Positions 9,213-41,842 of a DNA stretch of 64,000 bases are shown here, in pieces. The position numbers and the translations under genes were made by a program. Each line of letters starts with the position of its first letter. The stretch's first letter is position 1. The notes under the pieces are model-generated. The model was not told the origin of the DNA. It made no database searches and worked only from the letters and a program-made list of their open reading frames with translations. The stretch is from a virus, in the IMG/VR virus record IMGVR_UViG_3300046804_001743, positions 1 through 64,000 of that record. One strand, given 5' to 3'.

Positions 9213-9214
9213 AC

Positions 9215-11645: not shown

Positions 11646-11684
11646 GAAATATTTATATGCTACTATAACTCACTTAAATATATC

Positions 11685-19110: not shown

Positions 19111-20077
19111 ATTGTGCTCCTAGTTTATCAAACTTGCCGCATTGTTTACTGCATTCTATTAAAGGCTTTACTGCCCATGTGTCTTCTATCTTTTTAAAGA
19201 ATCCTAGATTAAAGATTTCTTCTAGTGTATTTTGTGTTAGGCTAGGAAATATCCCTATGGCATCCATATACTCAACACGATTATCTTGGTTAGGCAGTTG
19301 CCAAGAAAAGTCTAACCAACAGCAAGGACTTACTATGCCGTTAGCACTAATATAAATCTGTTTGTACTTTTGTGCCTTACATTGTATCTCAGCAGACTCA
19401 ATGTTTATTACCTTAGGCGTGTAACTTTTACTAATTTCTGTAGGATATAAAATGTGTGTGGTCTTGCCCGACTCGTCTAATACATTAAATTTTCCATCTT
19501 TAAAACGGCTAGTGTGTTTTACTTGGAAATGTTTAAATCCTAATAGTTGGCTCATTTCCCTGCAGATGTCTACCTCATTTTCGTTATGTTCAAACACTAG
19601 CATATCCCAAGTTGCTTCACCACCTGCTTTAATAAACAATTTTGCGTTGTCTAAAATCTTAACCCAGTCAGTGCCCACACGATACAATGCGTGTGTGTTA
19701 ATTAATCCATCTATACCAAACCTAACTTGTACACCCACGGCTGCGAGCCCCTTCCAGAACTGCCAGCTTCTGGCACTTCCGTTAGTATTCATGCTTAAAC
19801 GAATTGTAGGATTTGTTTCTCTCAAGTACTGAAATATTTTTAGACAATCTTGTGCTATAATAGGATCACCTAAATTGCCGCACATAAACAAACTGTCTAA
19901 CTGTTTTATAAAACTAACAGGGAACCATTCTTTAAATTGCTCTAGGGTTATTTCATTTAACGACATAAGAGGATTAATGGGACCACCATTGATGCGGCGT
20001 GGACACATTGGACAACGTGCTTGGCACTTGCTAGTCAATTCTAAGTGTACGTCTCTAATATCTTCTAGTTTATACAT
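19100..20077 (-). CDS. radical SAM enzyme (Cys-rich C-terminus)
   Basis: CQARCPMC near the N-terminus and GNLGDPI. C-terminal CCW...C...C cysteines. Confidence 0.75.
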   Translation of the reverse strand: MYKLEDIRDVHLELTSKCQARCPMCPRRINGGPINPLMSLNEITLEQFKEWFPVSFIKQLDSLFMCGNLGDPIIAQDCLKIFQYLRETNPTIRLSMNTNGSARSWQFWKGLAAVGVQVRFGIDGLINTHALYRVGTDWVKILDNAKLFIKAGGEATWDMLVFEHNENEVDICREMSQLLGFKHFQVKHTSRFKDGKFNVLDESGKTTHILYPTEISKSYTPKVINIESAEIQCKAQKYKQIYISANGIVSPCCWLDFSWQLPNQDNRVEYMDAIGIFPSLTQNTLEEIFNLGFFKKIEDTWAVKPLIECSKQCGKFDKLGAQFVS

Positions 20078-21024
20078 TTTGGTATTTTACTGTCCGCCGA
20101 ACTTACGCAGGTTGGTGTAATACAGCGTTGAGGTTGTTTAAATAATTTAAAGTTATCTAATGTGCCTAATAGTTCGTCATGGCAGCTATAACTTCTTTTA
20201 ACCTCATTACCTCTTATTATAACACTCTGATAGCCTGCATTGCAAGCCCATCCTTGGAATTTGTTAAATCCAAAGGCATTAAATCTTTCTGCTTGATCTA
20301 ACAAGTGCTCTGTGCCATTTGCTTCATATAGAGCTATTTGGTAAACATCTTCACCATTGGCTCTTTGTGGAAAACCTGTACGCATTTTGTGTATCATATC
20401 CTCAGTATAACCGTCAACTACTGCACTAGCAGTTTCGTTACTTTGTGGCTTTAGTGTTACATTGATTCCTCTATCGTGTAACCTCTGCATACGGTCATAC
20501 AATTCATAAAATTTTTCAGGAACCATAACTTGGTTTACTGTAACAAATACACCCTTATCTATTAAGTAAATAATCTTATCACCAAACTCTGTTTCGTCAG
20601 CAAACTCGTGATGGAAACTGGCAGTAAGGCTTCTACGCCTGCTTAACGATGTACCAGCTAGCCACCTATCCCACCATTGGATCCCAGGACTAAGGTTAGT
20701 AGTCATATGAATACTGTCATAGAAAACTTTGGACATTAGCTCAATTGAGTGTTTGTATGCGGTAGGTTCACCTCCGCTGAAACTCCAGTGAAATTGGACA
20801 AATCCATTTTGGGCGGCTTGAAATCGTATTTCGTCTATTGTTCTTTTATAAACTTCGAGCTCTTGATGATCTGGTGTTTGGCTATTAGCATAAGGCCAAC
20901 AATAGCTACATTTATAGTTACAAAATCTACCCAAAATCCAACTCACTGAGAAAATTTGGTCGTTGAGCATAGTTCGTTGTCCAAAACGAACGATCTTTTG
21001 GAATGGTATGGTTGCAAAGCTCAT
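20065..21024 (-). CDS. radical SAM / SPASM-twitch domain enzyme
   Basis: CNYKCSYC and FSGGEPTAY. C-terminal WACNAGY...C...C..C. Probable ATG at 21024 (the ORF track starts at a GTG, 21030). Confidence 0.8.
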   Translation of the reverse strand: MSFATIPFQKIVRFGQRTMLNDQIFSVSWILGRFCNYKCSYCWPYANSQTPDHQELEVYKRTIDEIRFQAAQNGFVQFHWSFSGGEPTAYKHSIELMSKVFYDSIHMTTNLSPGIQWWDRWLAGTSLSRRRSLTASFHHEFADETEFGDKIIYLIDKGVFVTVNQVMVPEKFYELYDRMQRLHDRGINVTLKPQSNETASAVVDGYTEDMIHKMRTGFPQRANGEDVYQIALYEANGTEHLLDQAERFNAFGFNKFQGWACNAGYQSVIIRGNEVKRSYSCHDELLGTLDNFKLFKQPQRCITPTCVSSADSKIPKCIN

Positions 21025-21052
21025 TGACACTATTTACAAACGGATATATAAT
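21024..21052 (+). promoter_or_regulatory. sigma70-consensus promoter (TTGACA-17nt-TATAAT)
   Basis: TTGACA at 21024-21029 and TATAAT at 21047-21052 with a 17-nt spacer. The predicted TSS (about 21059) coincides with the start of the tRNA-like element. Confidence 0.6.
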
Positions 21053-26500: not shown

Positions 26501-26946
26501 AAATTGGACTTAGTTACAGTCGATGCGTTCGCGACATCGTTGAGGGCAAAGTGGACATTAAAGACATCCTAGTTATTGTTGCTCGTACAGACTTTGACCC
26601 AAATAATGATGAACAATGGCAGGGTATTTGGCAGGGGTATGGTGGCGGCAGTAATGGCGACCGTATGCGCGGCATCTTTAGTGCTGGCAATCCAGAATGG
26701 TTTGAGTACGGTGACGAGGACGAAGAAAAGTTTCGAAATGTAAGTCGTGAGCTTTGGAATCAAGGCAAGTTCCATCAGCCACGCCAGTTTGGTGCTTATC
26801 CAAAACGATTGCCCTATATTTGGTTAGATACTATACTACCTAGTGAAGAGCTAGATAAAGCACCAGGTGTTAAGGCCGCTTGGGAAAAGTTCCAAATGCT
26901 TGCAGGCCTTAGCAGTGTTCAACTCGATGATCATCATATTGCGTGA
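26497..26946 (+). CDS. hypothetical protein
   Basis: ORF with ATGA overlap. Confidence 0.4.
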   Translation: MKIGLSYSRCVRDIVEGKVDIKDILVIVARTDFDPNNDEQWQGIWQGYGGGSNGDRMRGIFSAGNPEWFEYGDEDEEKFRNVSRELWNQGKFHQPRQFGAYPKRLPYIWLDTILPSEELDKAPGVKAAWEKFQMLAGLSSVQLDDHHIA

Positions 26947-27209
26947 AATATCTTTTAATTTTAGCAGTAGCAGTTTTAGTAGGGTGTAGCGATGCTAGAC
27001 CTGCTAATCCTATGCTAACCTATGAGCAATTAAAATCTTTTCAAGTAGACTGCGAAAAGAAAGAAGAACAGCTCAAACAATTAAACTATATTAAAGCAAG
27101 AAAAAACTTTCCAGAAAACCCAGAAGACATTACAGACGAAATGGACAGGGCCTACAATAGTAGGCTCAAAGCAACCATTTGGTGGTATACCTACAGGTGC
27201 GAACAATGA
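26943..27209 (+). CDS. small lipoprotein
   Basis: MKYLLILAVAVLVGCSD (lipobox LVGC). Confidence 0.5.
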   Translation: MKYLLILAVAVLVGCSDARPANPMLTYEQLKSFQVDCEKKEEQLKQLNYIKARKNFPENPEDITDEMDRAYNSRLKATIWWYTYRCEQ

Positions 27210-27553
27210 AAAAATTAATAGCCATTTTATTGTTCGCATCATCAGCTGTTTGGGCCGACGAATGCCGTGTTACTAGTGCAACTGCCCAAATTGGTAGCGA
27301 GCTCAAAACCGAAACTATTACTGTTTGCAAAGAAGGTGAAATGATTTCCCAACGAATTAAAGTTGGTGATACTGTTTTGGAAACAGAAGTTGGGCAAAGT
27401 AATGTTAGAGTTGGCTACTTTAAGTACCGAAATAGTACTTGTAAACTGTTCACAGAGCGTCTAACTGAAAAGGGCAAGCTCAGAGTTAATCACGGAGTCA
27501 TTTGCCAAATTGATAATAGTCCAACAAATTGGCTAGTAGTAGATAAATGGTAA
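27206..27553 (+). CDS. small secreted protein
   Basis: MKKLIAILLFASSAVWA signal peptide. ATGA overlap with the upstream gene. Confidence 0.5.
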   Translation: MKKLIAILLFASSAVWADECRVTSATAQIGSELKTETITVCKEGEMISQRIKVGDTVLETEVGQSNVRVGYFKYRNSTCKLFTERLTEKGKLRVNHGVICQIDNSPTNWLVVDKW

Positions 27554-27562
27554 GATTGGTTC

Positions 27563-27591
27563 TTGACATTTGACTAAGGTCACTGTATAAT
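27563..27591 (+). promoter_or_regulatory. sigma70-consensus promoter (TTGACA-17nt-TATAAT)
   Basis: TTGACA at 27563-27568, 17-nt spacer, TATAAT at 27586-27591. Followed by the conserved leader motif. Confidence 0.6.
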
Positions 27592-27606
27592 TAGGCTATG
27601 TTCAAC

Positions 27607-27621
27607 ACACACTGAGGCACA
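27607..27621 (+). promoter_or_regulatory. conserved 5' leader / RBS motif ACACACTGAGGCACA (copy 2)
   Basis: Identical to 21186-21200. Precedes the ATG at 27626. Confidence 0.5.
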
Positions 27622-27625
27622 CACA

Positions 27626-27787
27626 ATGACAAAATGGATTGTAATCCTTGCTATTGTTATTTTGGCACCTACATTTGTTATTAATGTCATGTCTAACGGT
27701 GTTAACTTCGTTAGCACACAGGGCAAGGCATTAGTAGGCGAAATGGCAAAAGAGGCTACTAAAACTGTTCAAGAGGCATCAAAATGA
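27626..27787 (+). CDS. small membrane peptide (53 aa)
   Basis: MTKWIVILAIVILAPTFVINV transmembrane segment. Not in the ORF track (under 60 aa). Sits behind the promoter and RBS. Confidence 0.45.
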   Translation: MTKWIVILAIVILAPTFVINVMSNGVNFVSTQGKALVGEMAKEATKTVQEASK

Positions 27788-27915
27788 AAACACTTGCAAA
27801 AATTGTTTTAATCTGTATGACTTTGAATTTTGCCGCTTGCTCAACTGTTGCAGGCGTTGGCAAAGACATTCAAGATACTGCTAATTGGACTAAAGATAAA
27901 ATGGGAGGCAAATAA
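27784..27915 (+). CDS. entericidin-like small lipoprotein (43 aa)
   Basis: MKTLAKIVLICMTLNFAACSTVAGVGKDIQDTAN carries the lipobox plus the GxGxDI motif of EcnA/EcnB. Confidence 0.55.
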   Translation: MKTLAKIVLICMTLNFAACSTVAGVGKDIQDTANWTKDKMGGK

Positions 27916-28472
27916 TGCGTAAATTTCTAATGCTTGTCCCGCTGGTAGCTATGTTAGCCGCTTGTGGAACCACTGATCCTTATGCCAAACGTGCAGAACA
28001 AGAACGTGAGCGTCAAGAACGATATGTAGAACGTTCTATTGACAAGGCACCTAAGTGGATGTTCGAGCTTCCTAAGAGCACTAGTGCAGTATACTCAAAC
28101 GGTACTAATACCAGTGCAAGTTGGGAAATGGCTTTACACAAGGCTAAAGCAGATGCATACGGTAAAATCTGTATGACTGCTGGCGGCACTACTAGCCAAC
28201 AGACTAAGATCTATCGTGCAGATCAAGGTAAGTCTAGTTCTGAAGTAAGCGAAATGGTAATTCGTGCATCTTGTAAAGAAGTTGATATTACAGGTGTAGA
28301 AGTTGCTGAGAAAAAGATCATGCAAGAAGGTTCTCAGTACCGTGCGTATGTTCTAATCGCTCTGCCTACAGGCGATGCTAATGTACTAAAACGTGCTAAG
28401 GATCAGCAACGTGTCAATGAGCTAGCCGCTCAACGTGCTCCTGAAGCATTTAAAGAACTGGATAAACAATGA
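27915..28472 (+). CDS. lipoprotein (LPP20-like?)
   Basis: MRKFLMLVPLVAMLAACGT lipobox. Confidence 0.5.
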   Translation: MRKFLMLVPLVAMLAACGTTDPYAKRAEQERERQERYVERSIDKAPKWMFELPKSTSAVYSNGTNTSASWEMALHKAKADAYGKICMTAGGTTSQQTKIYRADQGKSSSEVSEMVIRASCKEVDITGVEVAEKKIMQEGSQYRAYVLIALPTGDANVLKRAKDQQRVNELAAQRAPEAFKELDKQ

Positions 28473-28645
28473 TTCGTCTTTGGATAACCTTTATTGTTTT
28501 TGCTTTCCTTATCCACTTTTCAATCGTCTCCTGGCGAGCGTTGAGTGGAAAGGAAAAATGGTCGTTGACAAAGTCCATCGGCTATAGTATAATTGTTTCA
28601 CTGTTAGCAGTAGCTGTGATGACTACGATAGTAATCGTTTTTTAA
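28469..28645 (+). CDS. small membrane protein (58 aa)
   Basis: Two hydrophobic segments. ATGA overlap with the upstream gene. Confidence 0.4.
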   Translation: MIRLWITFIVFAFLIHFSIVSWRALSGKEKWSLTKSIGYSIIVSLLAVAVMTTIVIVF

Positions 28646-28653
28646 GGAGTTTT

Positions 28654-28740
28654 ATGATTAACGATTTTTGGCTTCGCCCCTTGTACTTCGTACTTGGATT
28701 TGTTGTTTGTTTTTTTCTAATGGTTAAAGGATTTATCTAA
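28654..28740 (+). CDS. very small hydrophobic peptide (28 aa)
   Basis: AGGAG RBS. MINDFWLRPLYFVLGFVVCFFLMVKGFI. Confidence 0.25.
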   Translation: MINDFWLRPLYFVLGFVVCFFLMVKGFI

Positions 28741-28741
28741 A

Positions 28742-29536
28742 ATGAAACGTTTTATTACTCTTGGTATTTTGGCCGGTGCTGTATTGATGACTGGTTGTAC
28801 CCGTATCGAAACAGGTGAGGTTGGCTTGCGTGTCGGCTTTGACAAGCAGGTTAAAAATGAGGAACTGCTACCAGGATCATTCAATCAGGTTATCATCGGC
28901 GATGTGCTTACATTTCCGGTTAAGGATGTTAACGTCAAACTTGACGACATGACTCCTATTGCCAAAGACAATAGCACTATGAAAGACTTTGACGCTATTG
29001 TTATCTATAACTTGAACCAAAGTCAAGTTGCCGAGTTGTACAATTCAAAGTCTAAGGCGTTCCATATTAGACATGACGGCGACACTTACTTGATGTTTAA
29101 CTACATTTACAATGCCGCTCGTAATGCTATCTACAAAGAAGCTCGTAAGTACGAAGCATTGGATATGGCAGATAATCGTCAAGCTATGGAGCAGGCGATT
29201 CGTGAGCAGATCCAAAAAACGTTGGTAGACGAAAAGTTAGACGGTAGCATTAGTATCGGCCAAGTGTTGATCCGTAACGTTGTTCCAGCAGATTCTGTCG
29301 TTGAAAGTGCTAACGCTCTTGTTCGTGCTAAGAACGAATTCAAGCAAAAGGAAGTTGAAGTGAAGACTGCTGAAGCAGAAGCTCGTCGTATGCAAGCGTT
29401 GGCTAATCAAGGTGCTCAAAGTATTGCCTATATGCAGGCTCGAGCACAAGCAGACATTGCTGAAGGTATCAAGAATGGTAAAGTCAATACTGTTGTTGTG
29501 CCCTACGACTTCAAAGGTCAAGTAGTGATTAAGTAA
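28742..29536 (+). CDS. SPFH/band-7 (HflK/C-, prohibitin-like) lipoprotein
   Basis: Lipobox LMTGCT, then TGEVGLRVGFDKQV... typical of the start of an SPFH domain. Ala/Glu/Gln-rich coiled-coil C-terminus. Confidence 0.6.
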   Translation: MKRFITLGILAGAVLMTGCTRIETGEVGLRVGFDKQVKNEELLPGSFNQVIIGDVLTFPVKDVNVKLDDMTPIAKDNSTMKDFDAIVIYNLNQSQVAELYNSKSKAFHIRHDGDTYLMFNYIYNAARNAIYKEARKYEALDMADNRQAMEQAIREQIQKTLVDEKLDGSISIGQVLIRNVVPADSVVESANALVRAKNEFKQKEVEVKTAEAEARRMQALANQGAQSIAYMQARAQADIAEGIKNGKVNTVVVPYDFKGQVVIK

Positions 29537-29537
29537 A

Positions 29538-29744
29538 ATGTGGAAACGGATACTGTTTCAACGTAGTGGCGGACATTACCTCTTTTGGCTGTCCGCCATT
29601 TATCTTGTTGTAGGCTTTACTAACATTGCTTACAAGTTTACTGAATCTGAATACATTCAAATAGTTTGGATTCTTTGTTTAATTATTCCGCTTGTTGTTA
29701 AACCTGTAGCACGATGGCTCAACATGCGAACACTATGGGAGTAA
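29538..29744 (+). CDS. small membrane protein
   Basis: Two TM segments. Confidence 0.4.
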   Translation: MWKRILFQRSGGHYLFWLSAIYLVVGFTNIAYKFTESEYIQIVWILCLIIPLVVKPVARWLNMRTLWE

Positions 29745-30089
29745 GTGATGAGTTTTTTAAGTTTTTTAGGATTTGGCAAAATGGTTAAAGACGGCGCAGA
29801 TGTTTTAAAGTTCCCAGAAGTAAAGGCAGTTCCAAAAATGCCAGAGGTAAAACCTCCAGAAAAACCTGCAACTGTTTTTTATAGACTTGGTATGACTGAT
29901 AATAATCGTGTTAGTTTATCAATGGGGGTCAGTGAAATCCTTATGACCAAAGAAGGTGTTGAAAACTTAATAGCCCAACTGGCTAGTTTTAGAGATACCC
30001 TTGCGGCAGAAGTTGATAATACAACGGATGATGACCCAAATGGCGGCGAACCTATTCCAGTGCCTGAAGAACAACAAAAGGTAGCGTAA
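29745..30089 (+). CDS. hypothetical protein
   Basis: ORF only. Confidence 0.4.
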   Translation: MMSFLSFLGFGKMVKDGADVLKFPEVKAVPKMPEVKPPEKPATVFYRLGMTDNNRVSLSMGVSEILMTKEGVENLIAQLASFRDTLAAEVDNTTDDDPNGGEPIPVPEEQQKVA

Positions 30090-30286
30090 TGAGCGGAAAA
30101 GGTTTTATAGCACAGCAACCCGACGAAGTTTGCGAAATGTGCGGAAAAGTGGACGAGTGTCGTCCTTACGGTCCTAACGATGAAAACATCTGTTTTAACT
30201 GCGCCATGACTAAAGTAGGCGAAGAAACAGTTAAAAAGAAAATGGCCGCTTATATCTTTGGAGAAACAGATGCCAACCCAACGTGA
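30089..30286 (+). CDS. small zinc-ribbon protein
   Basis: CEMCG...CFNC. Confidence 0.4.
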   Translation: MSGKGFIAQQPDEVCEMCGKVDECRPYGPNDENICFNCAMTKVGEETVKKKMAAYIFGETDANPT

Positions 30287-30527
30287 GCTAGAAGAAATGG
30301 AACATGACTATTTAGAAATGGATCGTGACAAGGTTCGAGCTATTTGCCATGAGATTATGAAGGACGAACTTTTTGAAGGTATGGTAGCTAAAGAAGAGTT
30401 GCGTTTACTCAAAGAAGGTCATACAATGTTAATTCCGCACGATGTAGAACATGCTCGTGCTATGTTTAAGATGGCTTGTTTTTACCTAAGCCAGTATGAC
30501 AAAGATTTTAAATTGGAAATGAAATGA
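30258..30527 (+). CDS. hypothetical protein
   Basis: ORF only. Confidence 0.35.
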   Translation: MEKQMPTQRELEEMEHDYLEMDRDKVRAICHEIMKDELFEGMVAKEELRLLKEGHTMLIPHDVEHARAMFKMACFYLSQYDKDFKLEMK

Positions 30528-30970
30528 TTAAAGAATTTATTAACATCGTTGAATCTATGGAAGGCATTACTGATAAATGGTTTGATGGTGGATTCGTAAC
30601 TTACAAACATTCTACTCCGATACATTATAAAACTGCCAGCACATCTGGTACAGTTGATACCTTAGAAGGACCAGTTGACTATCAGGCTGGACATAAAATT
30701 ATCACAGGACCTAAGGGCGAGAAGTACCCGGTTAGTCCAGAAAAGTTTTCAGAATACTATGACGACAACGGCGATGGAACAGCTACGCCCAAGAAAATTT
30801 TTAAAGTTGCCAAACTTGCTGATCACAACGGTGTTGTTAAAGCAAGCTGGGGAGATTTGAATTATAAAGCAGGCGAAGACTATATTGTGCGTCACGGTAG
30901 CAATGACTACGGGGTCGTAAAAAAAGATATCTTTGCTCAAACATACCACCTACCGAAAAATAAAGGATAA
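30524..30970 (+). CDS. hypothetical protein
   Basis: ORF only. Confidence 0.4.
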   Translation: MIKEFINIVESMEGITDKWFDGGFVTYKHSTPIHYKTASTSGTVDTLEGPVDYQAGHKIITGPKGEKYPVSPEKFSEYYDDNGDGTATPKKIFKVAKLADHNGVVKASWGDLNYKAGEDYIVRHGSNDYGVVKKDIFAQTYHLPKNKG

Positions 30971-30973
30971 AAA

Positions 30974-31594
30974 ATGCCACATCTAGTACCTACAGTTATT
31001 GAAACAGAAGCACGTGGTGAACGTGCTTATGACATTTACAGTCGTCTGCTCAAGGACCGTATTGTAATGTTAGATACAGAAGTAGACCAACATTCTGCTA
31101 GTTTGCTTGTAGCACAACTGCTATTCTTGGAAAGTCAAGGAAACGAAGATATTAACTTCTTTATCAATAGCCCCGGTGGAAGTGTTACTGCTGGTCTTGC
31201 TATTTACGATACCATGCAGTTTATTAGGCCAGATGTTGCAACTTATGTTGTTGGACAGGCTGCAAGTATGGGGTCTTTCCTTGCTCAAGCTGGCGCACCC
31301 GGAAAGCGGTTTGTTCTACCCGAAAGTCGGACAATGATTCATCGTGTAAGTTCAGGTACTCCGGGCACACGAGGAAGTGTGCATGTTCAGGAACTTGAGT
31401 TTGAAGACGCTAAACGCACCTTTGAAGAAAGTCAAAGATTGAATAAACGACTAACTGAGCTGTATGTTAAGCACAATACTGCCGGCAAGACATTCAACGA
31501 AATGTTTGAAACTATGAAGTTTGATACGTTTTTAAGTGCTCAGGCGGCTGTAGAATATGGACTAGCTGATAAAGTTATCGAAAAGCGTCCGTAA
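30974..31594 (+). CDS. clpP: ATP-dependent Clp protease proteolytic subunit ClpP
   Basis: [51 protein letters not shown] matches the bacterial ClpP core, including the active-site Ser and His context. Confidence 0.9.
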
Positions 31595-31629
31595 TTAGAA
31601 ATTAGCTATATCCAGTATACGTTGCAATT

Positions 31630-31651
31630 CTAGGGATTCTTTTATCCCTAG
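31630..31651 (+). terminator. perfect 8-bp inverted repeat hairpin CTAGGGAT-tctttt-ATCCCTAG (possible terminator or processing site)
   Basis: Hairpin downstream of clpP. No strong T-tract follows. A TATATAAT -10-like box follows at 31665. Confidence 0.35.
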
Positions 31652-31717
31652 TTCATAAAGTGCGTATATAATTGGTAGCCATAGCACACTATAAATACAA
31701 CTGTGTAGGAGTGTGCC

Positions 31718-32446
31718 ATGGCCCGTCAGGCTTTTAACTGGTCTTTGCTAGATCGTGAAATGCTGTACTCAATGCTATATAGTCTTAAATCAGAGATTGT
31801 AGACAGACGATTACCTATTGGCGAAATTACTAGTCTAATTTCTCAGCACATTAAAGCACATATTCCAGTTAAAGTTCGTAGTAGTAGATTTAACCCTGTT
31901 AAAAAAGGCGAACTTTGGGTAGGCGGCGCATACTATAGTGACTTAGATAAAAAGGGCAGAAAGCGTTTTATTGAAATTGAACTGGCATATTCCCCTAAGT
32001 TTGCTACCATGCGTATGAGCAACTATCGTTGGGAACGTGTTTGCCAACTATTTGCTGACACAGTACTACACGAAATTATACATACTCGACAATATCGTGC
32101 TAGAAACTTTAAAGCCATACCTGGCTACCAAAGCACAGCCTATTATGCAAGAACTCGCAAAGAACAAGAGTATTACGGCGACAGAGATGAGATGGGTGCC
32201 CACTCATTTAATCTAGCACAGGATATGATTGATAAATTTGGCTGGGATACTAGAGCAATTAAGGCATACTTAGATTCAAAAGTTCCAAAACGTGTTCGCC
32301 CAAATGGTTGGGGCCGTTTTATGAAAGCATTTGAGTACGATCACAACCATCCAAAAGTTCGCCAAATGAAGCGTAAGATAATGAATCAATTAGAATATGC
32401 GTATGAAGGCAAACCATTTAAGACAACAAACTACTTGACATACTGA
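31718..32446 (+). CDS. HExxH zincin-like protein (paralog of 22485)
   Basis: FADTVLHEIIHTRQY ... DRDEMGAHSFNLAQD. AGGAG RBS. Confidence 0.5.
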   Translation: MARQAFNWSLLDREMLYSMLYSLKSEIVDRRLPIGEITSLISQHIKAHIPVKVRSSRFNPVKKGELWVGGAYYSDLDKKGRKRFIEIELAYSPKFATMRMSNYRWERVCQLFADTVLHEIIHTRQYRARNFKAIPGYQSTAYYARTRKEQEYYGDRDEMGAHSFNLAQDMIDKFGWDTRAIKAYLDSKVPKRVRPNGWGRFMKAFEYDHNHPKVRQMKRKIMNQLEYAYEGKPFKTTNYLTY

Positions 32447-32482
32447 TAATTAGACTGTATAATACTTACACTAAGTTAATTA

Positions 32483-33823
32483 TTGGAGTCTAAATTGAGC
32501 GATCCTTGCTACGCCGTCATTTCCACTCTGGAAGATCACCCTAGTCGTTTAAACAAAGAAGCTATTATTCTTGCTCAAGCTGAAGCAGGTAATAAAGAAT
32601 TCTTTGAAGGCACTAGGCTCGCTCTCGACTCAATGATTACTTTTGGACTTAAACAAATACCGGAGAAAACAGATGAAGATGGCCCTGGGCTGGATTGGGA
32701 TAGTTTTACTCTCGCTATTACTGGCTTTGTTACTCGCAATGTCACCGGTAATACAGCGAGGGATATGATTCAAGCGATGATGAAATCGGCCACTAAGAAA
32801 CAGTGGAATGGTTGGTATCGTCGCATCCTTATTAAAGATTTGCGCTGTGGTGTCAGCGACAAAACAATTAACAAAGTTGTAGAAAAGAAATGGCCTGATT
32901 ATGCAGTACCTGTCTTTAGTTGTCAGCTTGCTCACGATAGTGCTAATCATGAGGCAAAGGTCACTGGCAAAAAATATATTGAAGTCAAACTCGATGGCGT
33001 TCGCGTTATTACTATTGTTCGCGCAGATGGCCGCGTTGACCAGTTTAGTCGTAATGGTAAAGAGCTGGTAAACTTTCCACACATTAAAGAACAAATCAGT
33101 GCTGTAATTAAAAAACACGGAACTACTAAGAACATAGACTTTGTCCTCGACGGTGAAGTTATGTCTAGTAGTTTCCAAGACTTAATGAAACAGGTACATC
33201 GTAAAGATAATGTACAGGCAAATGATGCTGTACTTCATTTGTTTGACTTCTTGCCACTAGCAGACTTTGAAAAAGGTCATTGGAACAAAGGTCAGGAAGA
33301 GCGTAGTGCCATGTTGTATTATTGGCACAAAACTTACAAAGAAGAAATGCCCAACGTAGCAGTTGTCGGGCATGAGCTTGTTGACTTGGAAACTAAAGAA
33401 GGCAAGAAACGTTTCAAAGAAATTAATCAGAAAGCCATTGACGGCGGATACGAAGGCATTATGATTAAGGATCCCAATGCACCTTACGAGTGTAAACGTA
33501 CCGCAAGTTGGCTTAAACTCAAGCCATTCATTGAAGTGTCTCTAAATGTTGTTGCTGTCGAGGAGGGCACTGGCAGGAACATTGGTAAACTAGGTGCCTT
33601 AGTCTGTGAAGGTGAAGATGATAATAAATCAATTCGAGTCAACTGCGGTTCTGGGTTTAGTGATTCCGACCGTGATACTTTTTGGAATGATCGTGAGACC
33701 CTTATTGGCCAAGTTGTGGAAGTCCGTGCGGACGCTATTACACAAAACCAGGATGGAAGTTACTCTTTACGCTTTCCGCGCTTCTTACATTTTAGAGGGT
33801 TTGACAATGGCGAGAAAATTTGA
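32483..33823 (+). CDS. ATP-dependent DNA ligase
   Basis: Motif I EVKLDGVR, motif III LDGEVM, motif IV EGIMIKD, motif V WLKLKP. The track start is a TTG; the true start may differ. Confidence 0.85.
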   Translation: MESKLSDPCYAVISTLEDHPSRLNKEAIILAQAEAGNKEFFEGTRLALDSMITFGLKQIPEKTDEDGPGLDWDSFTLAITGFVTRNVTGNTARDMIQAMMKSATKKQWNGWYRRILIKDLRCGVSDKTINKVVEKKWPDYAVPVFSCQLAHDSANHEAKVTGKKYIEVKLDGVRVITIVRADGRVDQFSRNGKELVNFPHIKEQISAVIKKHGTTKNIDFVLDGEVMSSSFQDLMKQVHRKDNVQANDAVLHLFDFLPLADFEKGHWNKGQEERSAMLYYWHKTYKEEMPNVAVVGHELVDLETKEGKKRFKEINQKAIDGGYEGIMIKDPNAPYECKRTASWLKLKPFIEVSLNVVAVEEGTGRNIGKLGALVCEGEDDNKSIRVNCGSGFSDSDRDTFWNDRETLIGQVVEVRADAITQNQDGSYSLRFPRFLHFRGFDNGEKI

Positions 33824-34055
33824 TATCCGTCGCTCAATGCACAAGGACATGTTATACGGTTCTTTGCTAGAGCTTAGTCAAAACGCTCGTGTTTGGCACG
33901 AAAGTTCAGTAAGTCCTGAATACAGTCACTTGACAGAAGATGGCAAGGCTGCTATCATACATGTTGTTGAGGAAATGTTTCGCGGATTGCAAACTATCCA
34001 TAAACAAGAAATCAAAGAAGAAGCAAAACGACAAACAATGGAAGCACTTAAATAA
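33807..34055 (+). CDS. hypothetical protein (82 aa)
   Basis: ATG inside the longer track ORF. TAATG overlap with mazG. Confidence 0.4.
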   Translation: MARKFDIRRSMHKDMLYGSLLELSQNARVWHESSVSPEYSHLTEDGKAAIIHVVEEMFRGLQTIHKQEIKEEAKRQTMEALK

Positions 34056-34432
34056 TGACAAACCCATTTCGTGATCAAGAAAAATTTATGCGGGCCTGTG
34101 ATCAGACCGTAGACGAACATAACGAAGCACAATACAAATTGTACCTCGACCTTATGGAAGAGGAATGGAAAGAACTCCAAGTAGCACTGGATAAAGGTGA
34201 TCGTGTAGAACAACTGGATGCACTACTTGACTTTATCGTTGTTACCACAGGTGCTATTCATTCAGCAGGATTCGATGGCGAAGGCGGCTGGAAAGAAGTT
34301 ATGAAGACAAACTTTGCCAAGGTTGATTCAGAGACTGGCAAAGTTCGTAAGCGTGAGGACGGTAAGGTTCTCAAACCCGTGGGGTGGACTCCCCCTGACC
34401 TAAAACCATTTGTTAGTAAGGAGAACAAATAA
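34055..34432 (+). CDS. mazG: MazG-like nucleotide pyrophosphohydrolase
   Basis: About 125 aa, all-alpha NTP-PPase pattern (EE..E..D with an acidic cluster). Confidence 0.65.
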   Translation: MTNPFRDQEKFMRACDQTVDEHNEAQYKLYLDLMEEEWKELQVALDKGDRVEQLDALLDFIVVTTGAIHSAGFDGEGGWKEVMKTNFAKVDSETGKVRKREDGKVLKPVGWTPPDLKPFVSKENK

Positions 34433-35130
34433 TGTTTGGACATAGTTATACTGAAGGCGGAATTATTAACTACCGCACCGCTGGCGAAGTAAATCAAGCA
34501 ATGGGCCGTGTCTACGGATATATGGGTCTTGCTACCTTAGTCAGTATGTTTGTTAGTGGATTTATAGGAACTAATCCGGAACTTGTAAAATTCTTTTTTA
34601 CAGGTATTATGCATTGGGTTGTAATCTTTGCACCGTTACTAGCGGTGTTTGGTGTTACTGTTGCCCTTAATGCGAACCCGCCAAAGGAAATTGCCCTGCT
34701 ATTACTTGCAGGTTTTGCGGCTATCATGGGCCTGAGCTTTGCTGTAATCTTTGCTGTCTATACTCTACATAGTATTGTCACAGCCTTTATGGGCGCGGCC
34801 GTACTGTTTTGCACTATGGGCTTCTACGGATACTTCACTAAGAAGAGTCTTGATAGCCTAGGAAAGTTTATGTTTGTTGGCTTGATTGCTATTGTCATTG
34901 CTAGTATTATCAATATCTTTATTGGTAGCACAGTCATGCAAATGGTGATTTCAGCACTTGCTATTGTAATCTTTATGGGCTTAACTGCGTATGATACACA
35001 GCAAATTCGTGAGATAGTTAGTACAGATTCGAGCCCTGCTGTTGAAGTGACTGGCGCCTTGACCCTGTACCTAGACTTTATCAACATTTTCCTAAGTCTG
35101 CTTCAGTTGTTTGGAGACAAGAAGGACTGA
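34432..35130 (+). CDS. Bax inhibitor-1 / YccA family membrane protein
   Basis: 232 aa with 7 predicted TM segments. C-terminal LYLDFINIFLSLLQLFG matches the BI-1/YccA family C-terminal motif. Confidence 0.6.
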   Translation: MFGHSYTEGGIINYRTAGEVNQAMGRVYGYMGLATLVSMFVSGFIGTNPELVKFFFTGIMHWVVIFAPLLAVFGVTVALNANPPKEIALLLLAGFAAIMGLSFAVIFAVYTLHSIVTAFMGAAVLFCTMGFYGYFTKKSLDSLGKFMFVGLIAIVIASIINIFIGSTVMQMVISALAIVIFMGLTAYDTQQIREIVSTDSSPAVEVTGALTLYLDFINIFLSLLQLFGDKKD

Positions 35131-36341: not shown

Positions 36342-37733
36342 ATGAGCGCAGAAATTGATCGCATTAAAAAAGTAATCAAAATTACTAACGAAATTAGTCC
36401 AACATTCTGTTTGGCTAAATGGCACCATACTAGCATATACCTACATACTGGCCAAACACACAGTTGCTATCATCCAAGACCGCACGAAATTCCCTTAGAA
36501 GAAATTAAGTTTAATCCGGCGGCCTTACATAATACTCCTGAAAAGAAAAAAGAACGTGCCTTAATGCTTGTTGGTGAGAAGCCAAAAGGCTGTCAGTACT
36601 GTTGGAACGTAGAAGGACTTAGTGATACGCACATTAGCGACAGGCACGATCGAAATGCTAACATTTATAAACCAGAACGTTTAGAAGAAATCAAAAATAG
36701 TCCTTGGGACTTTAACATCAATCCAGAATACATAGAACTGGCATTTAGTAACGAGTGCAATTTTAAGTGTGGTTATTGCCATCCTATGAGCTCAAGCAGT
36801 TTCCAAAGCGAAATTAAAAAGCACGGTCCGTACAATACTGTTAAAAATCATACATTGAATATTGAGTGGTTCAATCCTTATCAAGAAGATGAAAATCCCT
36901 ACATTGATGCATGGTGGAGATGGTGGCCAGAAGTTAGTAAAACTTTAAACATTTTACGCATTACAGGTGGCGAACCCTTAATGCATAAGAGTACTTGGCG
37001 GTTGTTTGATAACTTGCGTCAGGAACCTCGTCCTTATTTAGAACTTAACCTAAACAGTAATTTAGGAACCACAACAAGACATGTAGAAAAACTTGTTGAA
37101 AATGTAAACGACTTAGTTAGCAATAATAAAGTTAGAACATTTAAACTATTTTCAAGTATGGATACTTGGAATAAACGTGCAGAATACTTGCGTACAGGAT
37201 TAGACGTAGATTTGTGGGAAAAGAATTTAGATGTATATCTAACAGGAACTAAACTTCCAATTAGCATCATGTGTACATTTAATATTTTAAGTGTTACATC
37301 ATTTATAGACTTCCTTGAAAAAGTTTTAGAATGGCGTAGGAAATATCAACCGTTACTAAACCCCGATGGTTACGGTAGACGTATTAGATTTGATACTCCT
37401 TATCTAAAAGAACCTCTACAGTACGACATGTTAATTTTACCAAAGGAAGAATTTTTACCTTACTTTGATAAAATTTTAAAATTTATTAATGACAATAGAG
37501 ACGAAACTGATCCTACAAAATTTACCGATATGGAGTATGAAAAGTTTCGTAGGGTTCGTGATTACTTTGCTACAGCAAGTTACGATGAAGCAAGAGTCAA
37601 AGAAGGTCGTAAAGATTTTTATAACTGGTTTACGGAATATGATCGTAGGCGCGGCGTGAATTTCTTAGAAACATTTCCTGAAATGGCAAATTTCTGGGAA
37701 CTATGTAAATCACAAGGTGCGCCTAATGAATGA
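36342..37733 (+). CDS. radical SAM enzyme with Cys-rich N-terminal domain
   Basis: FCLAKWHH...SCYHP...GCQYCWNVEG, then CNFKCGYC and ITGGEPLMH. Paralog of the 45980 gene. Confidence 0.8.
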   Translation: MSAEIDRIKKVIKITNEISPTFCLAKWHHTSIYLHTGQTHSCYHPRPHEIPLEEIKFNPAALHNTPEKKKERALMLVGEKPKGCQYCWNVEGLSDTHISDRHDRNANIYKPERLEEIKNSPWDFNINPEYIELAFSNECNFKCGYCHPMSSSSFQSEIKKHGPYNTVKNHTLNIEWFNPYQEDENPYIDAWWRWWPEVSKTLNILRITGGEPLMHKSTWRLFDNLRQEPRPYLELNLNSNLGTTTRHVEKLVENVNDLVSNNKVRTFKLFSSMDTWNKRAEYLRTGLDVDLWEKNLDVYLTGTKLPISIMCTFNILSVTSFIDFLEKVLEWRRKYQPLLNPDGYGRRIRFDTPYLKEPLQYDMLILPKEEFLPYFDKILKFINDNRDETDPTKFTDMEYEKFRRVRDYFATASYDEARVKEGRKDFYNWFTEYDRRRGVNFLETFPEMANFWELCKSQGAPNE

Positions 37734-38460
37734 ATTAAGTGATATCTTTTCAACTAATATATTCGAAAGCTGTGAAGATTTTAAACTAGGCCAGCCATTA
37801 CCAATGGCTGTTATCGATGATTTCCTTCCTGTAACCGTTGCATTAAATCTGTATAAGGAAAGCAATAGCATACCTGACTCGTATTGGACTAAATTTACAC
37901 GCAACGGCAGTCATATGAAAGAGTGTAAAAATCTTTCAGTCGCTCCTAATGCGTTCAACCTAGTAGCATACTTACATAGTTCATACGCTCTTAGACATTT
38001 AGAAAAGATAACAGGCATAGAAAAGTTAATCCCAGACCCACATTTAGTAGGTGCAGGTTATAGCAAAAGCAGTAACGGTGACACACTAAAGATCCACAAC
38101 GATTTTAACTGGAATGAAGAACTACAGTTACACCGTGCATTATCTTTAATCATTTATATCTCTCCAGAGTGGAAAACAGAATGGGGTGGTGCTCTTGATT
38201 TTTATGATAACAAACGAGAACAAGTGATACGATCTGTTGACTGCATTTTTAATCGTTGTCTCATTTGGCAGTACAACAAATACGGGTTTCATGGCTATGA
38301 AAAACCAATAGCATGTCCTGAAGATCAATACAGGGCAACATTTAGATTATTTTACTATACTAGTAATTCTACTCATAACCCCGAGGATCCACCGCATAGG
38401 AGTCAATATTGGTTTGATCCTACTACAGGTAGTCCATACGATATACGAGAACAAAAATGA
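37726..38460 (+). CDS. 2OG-Fe(II) oxygenase
   Basis: KIHNDF (HxD), WGGALDFYD, FHGYEKP. Paralog of the 41060 gene. Confidence 0.6.
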   Translation: MNELSDIFSTNIFESCEDFKLGQPLPMAVIDDFLPVTVALNLYKESNSIPDSYWTKFTRNGSHMKECKNLSVAPNAFNLVAYLHSSYALRHLEKITGIEKLIPDPHLVGAGYSKSSNGDTLKIHNDFNWNEELQLHRALSLIIYISPEWKTEWGGALDFYDNKREQVIRSVDCIFNRCLIWQYNKYGFHGYEKPIACPEDQYRATFRLFYYTSNSTHNPEDPPHRSQYWFDPTTGSPYDIREQK

Positions 38461-41059: not shown

Positions 41060-41842
41060 ATGATTGTTAACTTAGACAAGATCAAGGATGCGTTTAGCAC
41101 ATTTCATAGTGCTGAACCTTTCCCCTATTGTGTAATTGATAATTTCTTTACAGACGAAATTGCAGAACAATTAGCGTTAGAATTCCCTAACTCTGATTCA
41201 GATGTTTTTAATGGAAACTATTTTAATCAGATTGAAATTAAAAAGACATGCAATATCTGGGACCGATTCCCTGCTACTACATACAATGTCCTAACATATT
41301 TAAATAGTACAGAGTTTTTAGACATATTAAAACCATTAGTTAAACAAGATATCTTGTATGCAGACCACGGACTTCACGGTGGTGGGTGGCATATACATCC
41401 ACCTGGCGGCAAGCTAAATGTACATTTAGATTATAGCATTCATCCTAAGATGAAAAAGCAAAGAAACTATAACTTACTAGTTTATCTAAATCCTAACTGG
41501 CAAGAAGGATGGGGCGGAGAACTAGGACTATGGTCAGATAAAAATAACAAGCCCAGTGAGTTAGTTAAGGTCCTTGAACCTAAGTTCAATAGAGGAGTTA
41601 TCTTTGACACAACCGCTAATAGTTGGCATGGTCTCGAAGTGCCTAATAGTTTTCCAGAAGGACAAGACCGTAAAAGTATTGCACTATACTATCTTACAGA
41701 ACCCCCAACGAATGTTAATACTAGAGGTAGAGCCCTTTTCTCCCCAAGTAAAGAACAAGAAAACGACCCTGAAGTACTAGAATTGATCAAAAGAAGATCT
41801 CAAGTATCCGCAGGAGATGTATCAACATGGAGTCGTTCATGA
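41060..41842 (+). CDS. 2OG-Fe(II) oxygenase
   Basis: NVHLDY (HxD), WGGELGLWSD, WHGLEVP. Confidence 0.6.
   Translation: MIVNLDKIKDAFSTFHSAEPFPYCVIDNFFTDEIAEQLALEFPNSDSDVFNGNYFNQIEIKKTCNIWDRFPATTYNVLTYLNSTEFLDILKPLVKQDILYADHGLHGGGWHIHPPGGKLNVHLDYSIHPKMKKQRNYNLLVYLNPNWQEGWGGELGLWSDKNNKPSELVKVLEPKFNRGVIFDTTANSWHGLEVPNSFPEGQDRKSIALYYLTEPPTNVNTRGRALFSPSKEQENDPEVLELIKRRSQVSAGDVSTWSRS

Follow-up and report, generated by a model that had tools for sequence, protein, structure and literature searches.

Do the genes at positions 26943-35130 of this viral DNA form a single functional module, or do they only lie side by side? The window analysed comprises 64,000 nucleotides and derives from an uncultivated freshwater giant (jumbo) phage, possibly of the T4-like type. 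The initial annotation combined an entericidin-like lipoprotein, an SPFH protein, a Bax inhibitor-1 (BI-1) family protein and ClpP into one membrane-proteostasis unit. All of the features it described, including the lipoproteins, the signal-peptide protein and the tiny transmembrane (TM) peptides, are present at their positions in the ORF list, and all lie on the plus strand, as do the sites given below. The same 8 kb also encodes a DNA ligase, a MazG and a PGDYG protein recognised by Pfam, and since all genes from ~21 kb to past 55 kb are co-directional, mere adjacency carries little information. Comparison with ~240 related viral contigs splits the region into three parts, namely, a variable envelope island, a constant ClpP-HExxH-ligase-MazG block, and BI-1, which are separately inherited pieces and not a co-evolving module.

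The island contains eight consecutive ORFs (g01-g08, 26943-29744), every one of which encodes a lipoprotein, a secreted protein or a small membrane protein. Features of exported or membrane proteins were flagged in 8/8 of these ORFs versus only about 8 of the 76 other ORFs in the window, so that the envelope-protein cluster proposed earlier is real and not a product of chance. Lipoboxes are found in g01 (LVGC), g04 (FAAC), g05 (LAAC) and g07 (MTGC). The first gene, g01 (26943-27209), codes for an 88-aa lipoprotein, and g02 (27206-27553) for a 115-aa protein predicted to be secreted, with the signal peptide AVWA/DE, whose counterparts in some relatives are lipoproteins or TM-anchored forms; no family match for g02 was found in Pfam, PHROGs or NCBIfam profile searches. 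The 53-aa peptide encoded by g03 (27626-27787) has a single TM segment by hydropathy, and its gene shows a start/stop overlap with g04; in relatives the slot before the entericidin-like gene is occupied by its counterpart, an analogous 42-aa peptide (cluster c65). The g05 gene (27915-28472) codes for a 185-aa lipoprotein of the LPP20/FlgP fold. The small TM protein g08 (29538-29744, 68 aa) has one TM segment according to the hydropathy scan and two hydrophobic stretches by eye. It shares one reading frame (29538-30089) with g09 (114 aa), from which it is separated by a single TAA at 29742-29744, and relatives carry the two as one ORF of 150-165 aa.

Entericidin is the best match in two profile libraries for the 43-aa lipoprotein encoded by g04 (27784-27915), although the scores lie under every curated cut-off: 17.9 bits against 23.3 for the Pfam Entericidin family, and E-values of 2.6e-4 for EcnB and 6.7e-3 for EcnA in NCBIfam, both far under the equivalog cut-offs. 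The earlier assignment stands as regards the motif C-x-T-x-x-G-x-G-x-D-I, which is invariant in four phage copies and in E. coli EcnA and EcnB. As in the ecnAB locus of E. coli, a tiny lipoprotein (~40-48 aa) with the motif straight after the lipid-modified Cys is encoded just after a tiny membrane peptide. However, the partner in the phage is a TM peptide rather than a second entericidin, and the C-terminal half of g04 is rich in W, K and E instead of G, A and S.

The g07 gene (28742-29536) codes for a 264-aa lipoprotein of the SPFH/Band-7 superfamily, which scores above the Pfam Band_7 threshold (E 4e-17, 63 bits, cut-off 23.6) and matches PHROG 200, 'lipoprotein' (E 6e-32). Its description as HflK/C-like holds at the superfamily level but not for the HflK/C subfamily, no NCBIfam model of which was matched. 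Proteins of the g07 type occur in 191 cultured phage records and 407 IMG/VR contigs. The preceding gene, g06 (28469-28645), codes for a 58-aa protein predicted to form a two-TM hairpin; such a hairpin lies directly upstream of SPFH in 78 of 79 SPFH-anchored viral contigs, and of nine cultured phages checked, eight have analogous ones. Judging from this gene order, the hairpin is an obligate partner of the SPFH protein, and across cultured phage families its architecture is common and its sequence is not. Identity to the related locus L002 is 89% for g06 and 94% for g07, with 44-62% for the flanking genes. In bacteria, SPFH genes form operons with NfeD-type genes, namely, QmcA-YbbJ, YqiK-YqiJ and stomatin-STOPP. 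The phage arrangement resembles these in the strict pairing with a small membrane-protein gene, but the partner is placed upstream and consists of the TM hairpin only, without OB-fold or protease domain, and g06 matched no NfeD model in Pfam or NCBIfam. Phage SPFH lipoproteins of PHROG 200 (e.g. Kuttervirus CBA120 orf126 and those of Acinetobacter T4-like phages) likewise have a lipobox, a Band_7 domain, a length of ~260-270 aa and a small two-TM ORF immediately upstream. The identity of g07 to these copies is only 24-30%, reaching 44% for Synechococcus phage BUCT-ZZ01, and unlike the cultured examples it falls in a large subfamily from freshwater metagenomes, which comprises the 407 contigs. 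Published annotations assign phage SPFH proteins no function ('reason ... remains unclear', PMC13239085).

The cytoplasmic block begins with g13 (30974-31594), encoding the ClpP proteolytic subunit (above the Pfam CLP_protease threshold, E 6e-61). Along its entire length the protein can be aligned with solved ClpPs (E 5e-58), and it has the catalytic triad S98/H123/D184, which bears out its designation as a bona fide ClpP; relative to cellular ClpPs, an insertion of ~10 residues follows the region of the catalytic His. The gene does not adjoin capsid or portal genes. It is followed by g14 (31718-32446), encoding a 242-aa conserved protein with the invariant residues H118-E-x-x-H122 ... E158 ... 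H162, by g15 (32483-33823), encoding an ATP-dependent DNA ligase with a non-membrane function (Pfam DNA_ligase_A_M 1e-21 and DNA_ligase_OB_2 2e-11), and by g17 (34055-34432), encoding a MazG-type NTP pyrophosphohydrolase (Pfam PRA-PH 4e-8). The ClpPs of environmental and jumbo phages (Nishimura et al. 2017, PMC5332604; survey PMC13037316) are, like g13, stand-alone and full-length, and their phages, like that of the window, are large with many radical-SAM and Fe-S genes. From these known proteins g13 is distinguished by the insertion and by the HExxH protein encoded next downstream in nearly all relatives.

The stop codon of g17 overlaps the start of g18 (34432-35130), and the MazG-BI-1 adjacency was seen again in two different genomic contexts. 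The 232-aa g18 protein has seven hydrophobic segments and belongs to the BI-1/TMBIM family, above the Pfam Bax1-I threshold (E 8e-53). Its placement in the YccA family stands for the superfamily and fails for the YccA equivalog of NCBIfam (33 bits, cut-off 353). Phage BI-1 proteins are at least 63% identical to each other and at most 53% identical to cellular ones among the 80 best-matching cellular loci; on these identities g18 is a member of a phage-specific clade, found in at least 581 IMG/VR contigs. Cultured phages have no close copy, giving nine weak matches with less than 37% identity. As in YetJ and YccA, the Bax1-I domain is full-length and both sensor aspartates (YDTQQI and LYLDFINIF) are retained, the invariant D188 and D215 being equivalent to D171 and D195 of YetJ, and Asn occupies the position of the R60 latch of YetJ in the HMMER alignment. 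Bacillus subtilis YetJ is a pH-sensitive Ca2+ leak channel (PDB 4PGR), and E. coli YccA is a substrate and modulator of FtsH; unlike these bacterial proteins, g18 is phage-encoded, in its phage-only clade. Like g18, the BI-1 homologues of poxviruses (vGAAP) and giant viruses are virus-encoded TMBIM members under strong purifying selection. These viral TMBIM proteins block host cell death, whereas the host of the phage is a bacterium without apoptosis machinery. A Bax inhibitor is mentioned in one paper on a giant virus.

Alternatively, BI-1, SPFH and ClpP could substitute for short-lived host housekeeping proteins and so sustain the cell after the shut-off of host transcription in a long infection, with no virus-specific target and with ClpP devoted to turning over Fe-S and radical-SAM proteins and not to membrane proteostasis. 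Consistent with this, BI-1 shares 30 positions with the compared cellular homologues, each conserved to at least 90% in the latter and both sensor aspartates among them, and ClpP matches its cellular counterparts over the full length. Thirteen radical-SAM proteins scoring above the Pfam cut-off are encoded in the window, along with an A-type Fe-S carrier and an Fe-superoxide dismutase. For T4-like environmental phages rich in radical-SAM genes, ClpP has also been listed with the genes related to Fe-S (Nishimura et al. 2017, PMC5332604). However, the low identity of BI-1 to cellular proteins and its tight phage-only grouping indicate an old viral lineage and not a recent host copy, the pairing of an SPFH lipoprotein with a hairpin is typical of phages, and the fast-evolving lipoproteins are left unexplained. 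We regard this substitution as rather unlikely.

The inheritance of the parts was followed in relatives chosen by the neighbouring gene g14, a sample not biased toward BI-1. The tally was 31/31 for ClpP, 26/32 for BI-1, 17/31 for g05, the most constant island member, 14/31 for g01, 12/31 for the entericidin-like gene and 6/31 for SPFH, which is rare in the clade and occurs together with g06. All combinations of island and BI-1 presence and absence were found, including island-only (L246 and L192) and BI-1-only loci (L198, L210, L221 and L222). The interval between u1, a conserved gene, and clpP varies in length from 0 bp to 4.6 kb, and its ORFs almost all encode lipoproteins or TM proteins. 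For BI-1, six or more unrelated gene neighbourhoods were seen; outside the one present in the window its neighbours are nucleotide and sugar enzymes, as read from the sequence and not by profile scanning, and no membrane proteins. Of the SPFH-anchored contigs, 25 extend 8 kb or more in both directions; BI-1 was nearby in three of these and ClpP in five, so SPFH is mostly distant from both. These comparisons covered a flank of ~10 kb per locus in genomes of 150-350 kb, a span that misses copies of SPFH, BI-1 or ClpP farther off in the same genome. Relative to L002, dN was 0.050 for SPFH, the lowest in the region, 0.068 for BI-1, 0.17 for the ligase and 0.33-0.54 for g01, g02 and g05 (0.48 for the fast-evolving g01), values which give rankings of selection only, since dS is saturated (~1 or more).

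This independent presence and absence leaves the envelope cluster of the initial annotation standing but not its combination of SPFH, BI-1, ClpP and the entericidin-like protein into one unit. In such a unit the four would act jointly on host membrane quality control, redirecting it by way of FtsH: SPFH would mimic HflK/C, BI-1 would take the part of YccA, both substrate and inhibitor of FtsH, and ClpP would contribute proteolysis, in parallel to CIII of lambda. The SPFH, BI-1 and ClpP families are all confirmed by Pfam, their genes all lie downstream of early-type promoters, and JGI automatically names the BI-1 homologues 'FtsH-binding integral membrane protein'. As a lipoprotein, SPFH would be turned toward the periplasm, like the SPFH domains of HflK/C. 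BI-1 directly follows SPFH in L021, and in L014-L018 and L020 it sits inside the island and takes the place of SPFH, as a functional link would predict. Against this stand the rarity of BI-1 or ClpP near SPFH, the BI-1 genes of other lineages that lack membrane-protein neighbours, and the failure to reach the YccA and HflK/C models; the phage SPFH has a lipobox where HflK/C have an N-terminal TM anchor, and ClpP is cytoplasmic, within the ligase/MazG block. A link of phage BI-1 or SPFH to FtsH is possible, while joint action of all four appears quite unlikely.

Four exact TTGACA-17-TATAAT sites, the sigma-70 consensus, were identified in the window. One (27563-27591) precedes g03-g06 and is kept at the same position in L002 and L020, before the pair of small-TM and entericidin-like genes; another (28565-28593), in the 3' end of g06 and upstream of SPFH, is kept in four loci, the window and near-identical L002-type contigs; a third (32435-32463), upstream of the ligase gene, is kept in 26 related loci. 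A promoter-like site with 11/12 consensus positions and an extended TG (33930-33958) lies upstream of MazG and BI-1. Sites with at most one mismatch number nine in the window, all on the coding strand, versus 1.15 expected, and the 119 exact sites in 1.07 Mb of related loci likewise all lie on the coding strand, with 0 on the opposite one. Such exact consensus sites point to early transcription of the region by the host RNA polymerase. The small TM proteins and lipoproteins do resemble holins and o-spanins, g03 and g04 are an overlapping pair downstream of a strong promoter, and E. coli EcnB carries the annotation of a bacteriolytic lipoprotein, to which EcnA is the antidote. It is nevertheless highly improbable that these proteins make up a cassette for lysis or its timing (holin, antiholin and spanin, with BI-1 holin- or antiholin-like), and a canonical one, allowed for in the initial annotation, is rejected: the promoters are of early- rather than late-gene type, the scanned window ORFs (most of those of at least 150 aa) yielded no match to an endolysin, holin or spanin family, PHROGs gave no lysis match for the ten module proteins scanned, g05 has no u-spanin C-terminal TM segment, the ORF list contains no embedded i/o-spanin gene pair, and the island is wholly missing in the sister phages L036, L041, L064 and L075 and cannot therefore be an essential lysis cassette.

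The reading that we favour, and consider probable, is that the region is an early accessory arm of a jumbo phage in which the island, the cytoplasmic block and BI-1 lie side by side. The island is hypervariable, at a site fixed between u1 and clpP, almost wholly devoted to exported proteins and composed of sub-units: g01 with g02; the small TM peptide with the entericidin-like and LPP20/FlgP-fold lipoproteins; the hairpin with the SPFH lipoprotein, a mobile two-gene unit; and the TM protein g08/g09. Next to it stands the constant block, and then the common phage-clade BI-1, whose gain, loss and relocation do not follow those of the island. Gene identities, layout, separate inheritance, promoters and purifying selection are all shown, whereas the biochemical roles are inferred. 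The island proteins would enter the inner membrane, periplasm and outer membrane soon after infection, where they would condition or protect the envelope, either through superinfection exclusion or by stabilising it, with the SPFH-hairpin pair possibly forming a membrane scaffold. BI-1 may act alone, as a pH-gated cation-leak channel bounding the membrane homeostasis of the infected cell, and ClpP would act in the cytoplasm with host unfoldases. All three parts have a membrane or proteolysis theme in common, which counts against their separateness.

Small envelope proteins of this kind are known from other phages: Imm and Sp of T4 are early membrane proteins for superinfection exclusion, and Llp of T5 and Cor of phi80 are lipoprotein exclusion factors. 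Like the island, these are small membrane-protein or lipoprotein genes, dispensable and variable between related phages, with strong early sigma-70-type promoters; the island is larger, with up to eight genes, and no sequence similarity to these factors was detected. In Ackermannviridae, the hairpin-SPFH pair adjoins genes annotated as superinfection exclusion.

Eight consecutive ORFs on the + strand (26943-29744) are each predicted to encode an exported or membrane protein: a lipoprotein (g01, lipobox LVGC), a protein with a signal peptide (g02), a protein with one transmembrane (TM) segment (g03), a 43-aa entericidin-like lipoprotein (g04, lipobox FAAC), a 185-aa lipoprotein (g05), a 58-aa protein with two TM segments (g06, the hairpin), a 264-aa SPFH lipoprotein (g07, lipobox MTGC) and a small TM protein (g08). 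Since the same simple predictor flagged about 8 of the 76 other ORFs of the window, the cluster of envelope proteins reported in the initial annotation is real. From g01 to the Bax-inhibitor-1 (BI-1) gene, the genes concerned lie on the + strand only, in a densely packed array with often overlapping starts and stops. However, the co-directional block begins at about 21 kb and continues past 55 kb, so that lying next to each other on one strand characterises the arm as a whole and not these genes. In phage gene arrays that run in one direction, a shared theme among neighbouring genes is not sufficient to define a module.

The window was compared with three sets of related viral contigs, whose anchors were BI-1, the HExxH protein g14 and SPFH. 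In the window's clade the gene order is conserved, namely, u5-u1, a variable island of envelope-protein genes, and then ClpP-HExxH-ligase-(g16)-MazG-BI-1-(PGDYG)-g20-radical SAM. The interval between u1 and ClpP ranges from 0 bp (L036, L041, L064 and L075) to 4.6 kb, and contains almost exclusively lipoprotein and TM ORFs in varying combinations. In the g14-anchored sample, which is unbiased toward BI-1, ClpP was found in 31 of 31 loci, u1 in 29 of 31 and BI-1 in 26 of 32, followed by g05 (17/31), g01 (14/31), the entericidin-like gene (12/31) and SPFH (6/31, with g06 present every time). The island occurs without BI-1 (L246 and L192), and BI-1 without the island (L198, L210, L221 and L222). 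Among the 25 SPFH-anchored contigs that extend 8 kb or more in both directions, ClpP was nearby in five, BI-1 in three and g05 in three. In other lineages the neighbours of BI-1, as judged by inspection of their sequences, resemble FolE/QueD/QueE-like, sugar-nucleotide and FEN/RNase H genes, and no TM segments are predicted in them.

One observation points toward a single module: in L014-L018 and L020, BI-1 lies between g05 and g08, the slot occupied by g06 and SPFH in the window, and the gene order in L021 is g06-SPFH-BI-1-g08. However, MazG moved along with BI-1 in loci of the L014 type, so that a segment seems to have been relocated, rather than BI-1 specifically recruited. The proposal that SPFH, BI-1, ClpP and the entericidin-like protein form one module is thus not borne out, their presence and absence being independent across the g14- and SPFH-anchored samples. 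These distributions show what appears to be independent inheritance of the island, SPFH with its hairpin, BI-1 and ClpP, and we conclude that the stretch is best read as three separately inherited pieces. The co-localisation first noted was confirmed as an observation, and its interpretation was supported in part. Each of the families is already known, and SPFH and ClpP have been annotated in phages before; a phage-specific BI-1 clade and an obligate hairpin-SPFH pair are newly described here.

The BI-1 protein (g18, 34432-35130) matches Pfam Bax1-I (PF01027) with an E-value of 8e-53 and 179.8 bits against a cut-off of 34.1, residues 22-227 corresponding to profile positions 2-207 of 207, which establishes the superfamily assignment. 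A hydropathy scan, a simple predictor rather than a topology program, found seven hydrophobic segments. D188 and D215 align with D171/D195 of Bacillus subtilis YetJ, the di-aspartyl pH sensor; they do not vary among 80 viral copies, and their conservation in 80 cellular copies is 90% or more. The label of YccA family held for the superfamily and failed for the YccA equivalog (the FtsH protease modulator, NCBIfam NF007765), against which g18 scored 33.3 bits with a cut-off of 353.

Relatives of this BI-1 are encoded in at least 581 IMG/VR stretches, the best 80 of which are 69-91% identical, and the protein search returned at least 8,000 candidates, all with E-values of at most 1e-10. The window protein has an identical counterpart (100%) among JGI metagenome proteins, encoded on a 67-kb contig; exact-sequence look-up of it and of the protein P0001 returned no record. 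A scan of one genome per species, covering 185,579 species, found best-segment identities no better than 34-47%, and cultured phage records yielded nine weak matches, all below 37% identity. In a common alignment of the 80 viral and 80 cellular copies, identity between viral copies is at least 63% (median 79%) and that between viral and cellular copies at most 53% (median 41%); within the viral set, conservation reaches 98% or more at 112 of 232 positions. Recent acquisition from a host was rejected. As dS was saturated (NG86, about 1 or more), genes were ranked by dN alone, and relative to the related locus L002 it increases from BI-1 (0.068) to the ligase (0.17) and ClpP (0.25). Both BI-1 and SPFH show what is, at the sequence level, strong purifying selection. 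The clade comprises hundreds of viral contigs and no cultured representative, its BI-1 is among the most conserved genes of the region, and our literature search on phage-encoded BI-1/YccA/PF01027 found no paper describing a phage BI-1. If functional, the clade would mean that bacterial and eukaryotic viruses alike have recruited TMBIM channels, and it would offer a new experimental handle on bacterial BI-1 and YccA, the physiological role of which is debated.

In the window's clade MazG directly precedes BI-1, its stop overlapping the BI-1 start (34055-35130). The same adjacency occurs in a second context consisting of a FEN/RNase H-like gene, a gene of protein cluster c9, MazG and BI-1 (L046-L049, L059-L061, L026 and L058), which shares almost nothing else with the window. 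For P0009 the upstream context is absent because its contig begins at BI-1.

The SPFH assignment of g07 is secure, the match to Band_7 (PF01145) having an E-value of 4e-17 and 63.2 bits against a cut-off of 23.6, with residues 21-214 covering profile positions 2-176 of 176. Membership of the HflK/HflC subfamily, which the initial annotation had also suggested, was rejected: the N-terminus is a lipobox signal instead of a TM anchor, and a search of NCBIfam gave no match at E-values up to 0.1. Likewise, phmmer found no match among PDB sequences at E-values up to 0.01. An FtsH-centred model, in which these proteins would act in membrane quality control, is possible but improbable.

Immediately upstream of SPFH, the 58-aa hairpin g06 has no Pfam or NCBIfam match. 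A detectable g06 homologue ends within 300 nt upstream of SPFH in 52 of the 79 SPFH-anchored contigs, and a further 26 have a 53-62-aa ORF with two TM segments there that follows the same pattern (MIR...SGKE.W.L.K...YS...ILF), so that a hairpin directly precedes SPFH in 78 of 79. A small two-TM ORF also lies just upstream of SPFH in the cultured phages BUCT-ZZ01, S-CREM1, B23, CBA120, phiEa2809, Bhz15, Bphi-R2919 and XC38; among those checked it is absent from Herod alone. Alignment of the hairpins of nine phage families revealed a common architecture and no conserved residues, and homology is therefore claimed just within the metagenomic 58-aa family. Both g06 and g07 are closer to their L002 counterparts (89% and 94% identity) than the flanking genes (44-62%), which suggests that the two were exchanged as one unit. 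The arrangement resembles bacterial SPFH-NfeD operons, in which the neighbouring partner NfeD combines a membrane domain, an OB-fold and, in some cases, a ClpP-like protease domain, but the phage partner lacks an NfeD domain. ClpP was rejected as an NfeD-type partner; it is a true ClpP located 1.4 kb downstream, and scores 23 bits against the NfeD1b_N cut-off of 40. Published phage papers give the SPFH lipoprotein without a function, which the literature openly calls unknown, and its strict pairing with the hairpin defines a concrete two-gene unit. In CBA120 and phiEa2809 the pair adjoins genes annotated as superinfection exclusion.

The two-TM ORF of Erwinia phage phiEa2809 (L170, KP037007.1, locus 545-1200), of about 63 aa (MFILRFALIFIVLAFAGFFFWK...) and directly upstream of the annotated SPFH, is unannotated and was seemingly overlooked in the GenBank record. 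The closest SPFH of a cultured phage, at 44% identity, is that of Synechococcus phage BUCT-ZZ01 (L001, ON615601.1); as in the window, it is flanked by several small TM ORFs, and this phage also has NadM/NAMPT genes.

The entericidin call is the weakest of the family assignments. In its favour, g04 has the entericidin format (43 aa, where the family has about 40-50 aa, a lipobox, and a conserved motif following the Cys), and an entericidin is its top match in two independent libraries. The motif C-x-T-x-x-G-x-G-x-D-I, which begins at the acylated Cys, is invariant in an alignment of four phage copies with Escherichia coli EcnA and EcnB (NC_000913.3), and was found in no other ORF of up to 70 aa (1762 ORFs called in related loci). 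However, g04 falls below the curated cut-offs of Pfam PF08085 (17.9 bits against 23.3) and of the NCBIfam equivalogs (NF007487/NF007319 set), with 20.6 against 94 for EcnB (E-value 2.6e-4) and 16.3 against 86 for EcnA (6.7e-3). It is probably a distant relative of the entericidins, its membership falling short of proof.

Elsewhere in the island, g01, g02 and g05 are fast-evolving. The lipoprotein g05 is a candidate member of the LPP20 lipoprotein family (PF02169), and one of its homologues is from an 'uncultured Caudovirales phage'. A PHROGs search assigned neither BI-1 nor any of the small island proteins to a family, and PADLOC defence models gave, for ten proteins, just a CorA-like match for SPFH (E-value 0.008). 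The ORFs g08 and g09 (29538-30089) form one reading frame split by a single TAA (29742-29744); relatives have one fused ORF of 150-165 aa, with two predicted TM segments in most copies, and a nonsense mutation, a true split of the gene or a sequencing error could each account for the interruption. The 65-aa product of g10 (30089-30286) contains two CxxC pairs (CEMC...CFNC) and is probably a zinc ribbon. It is 83-84% identical to the L002 copy, and in L256 a homologue immediately precedes SPFH.

Between SPFH and BI-1 are encoded a PGDYG protein, ClpP, g14, an ATP-dependent DNA ligase and a MazG-type pyrophosphohydrolase. The ClpP (g13, 30974-31594) is bona fide: it matches the full-length profile CLP_protease (PF00574, peptidase S14; E-value 6e-61, 205.9 bits), aligns end to end with solved ClpPs (E-value 5e-58) apart from an insertion of about 10 residues, and retains the Ser-His-Asp triad (S98/H123/D184). 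No AAA+ partner (ClpX or ClpA) was found among the window ORFs scanned. Prohead proteases of the ClpP/S49 type are encoded beside the genes for portal, scaffold and major capsid proteins, and many are fused to a scaffold domain; this role was rejected for the stand-alone 206-aa gene, which lies between the PGDYG protein and the HExxH protein and ligase. PHROG head-protease profiles match it because the fold is common to both. The adjacent g14 (31718-32446) encodes a conserved protein of 242 aa in which the pattern HExxH...E...H is invariant; it has 858 homologues, and no known fold was recognised in it.

Identity among close relatives is mosaic in this region: ClpP is 68% identical to that of L002 and 89% to that of L006, g14 is 65% identical to that of L002 and 93% to that of L012, and SPFH shares 94% with L002 where its neighbours share 44-62%. 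This mosaicism indicates that gene-sized recombination is frequent here (30974-35130 compared with L002, L006 and L012).

Exact TTGACA-17-TATAAT promoters are located at 21024, 27563 (ahead of g03), 28565 (ahead of SPFH) and 32435 (ahead of the ligase), and sites with one mismatch at 12148, 23134, 33930 (ahead of MazG and BI-1), 39583 and 48247. These nine sites with at most one mismatch are all on the coding strand, where 1.15 would be expected; in 1.07 Mb of the window and related loci (L002-L081) the exact consensus occurs 119 times on the coding strand and never on the other. The site before the ligase is conserved in 26 loci and that before SPFH in four, the window and near-identical L002-type contigs. 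This is a signature of what would be early-type transcription by the host RNA polymerase. A canonical holin-endolysin-spanin cassette, the alternative named in the initial annotation, is contradicted by these early-type promoters, by the dispensability of the island, which sister phages lack, and by the scan of most window ORFs of at least 150 aa, which found no endolysin, holin or spanin family; g05 was also rejected as a u-spanin.

The island proteins would thus be made early and act on the envelope of the infected cell, where superinfection exclusion or receptor masking would fit the fast-evolving lipoproteins. SPFH and its hairpin may form a membrane scaffold, and BI-1, acting alone, may retain the ancestral pH-gated cation-leak activity. 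In the cytoplasm, ClpP would pair with host unfoldases, and may help to turn over the many Fe-S and radical-SAM enzymes that the phage encodes, a role suggested for marine T4-like genomes (PMC5332604). A bolder reading, which we consider improbable, is that these freshwater jumbo phages' own ancient BI-1 lineage is an early 'keep the host alive' factor, a bacterial-virus counterpart of poxvirus vGAAP, which would prevent abortive-infection or stress death driven by membrane depolarisation or ion flux, or would block the membrane quality control that depends on FtsH. In that reading the hairpin-SPFH scaffold and the entericidin-like lipoprotein would be further parts of one early programme that conditions the membrane.

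The window has no close relative among cultured phages: a megablast search with the 8 kb gave no match in 50,697 phage records. Related sequences are IMG/VR contigs, the longest of them 356 kb, and their metagenome sources suggest that the samples were freshwater; one window protein has a homologue in the Ralstonia jumbo phage RsoM2USA.

The window carries an unusual expansion of radical-SAM genes, in which 13 separate ORFs exceed the Pfam cut-off and four of these contain SPASM domains; the expansion occupies 4522-21030 (both strands), 36342-37733 and 45980-47491. The ORFs include 4522-5739, 5711-6706, 12951-14210, 14203-15087, 15084-16181 and 36342-37733 on the + strand, and 7231-8166, 16159-17133, 17130-18524, 19100-20077 and 20065-21030 on the - strand; the match at 45980-47491 (+) is below the threshold. 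Genes for 2OG-Fe(II) oxygenases are located at 2448-3047 (-), 37717-38460 (+) and 41060-41842 (+), and sugar-nucleotide enzymes, PTPS and UvdE are also encoded. A Fe/Mn superoxide dismutase (54005-54577) and a Fe-S A-type carrier (PF01521, 54909-55232) are followed by a giant ORF that starts at 55239 and runs past the window end at 64000 (at least 2,900 aa), with a borderline match to the T4 gp9/10 N-terminal profile (24.9 bits against a cut-off of 25); the related locus L162 has a 3,848-aa gene at the corresponding position.
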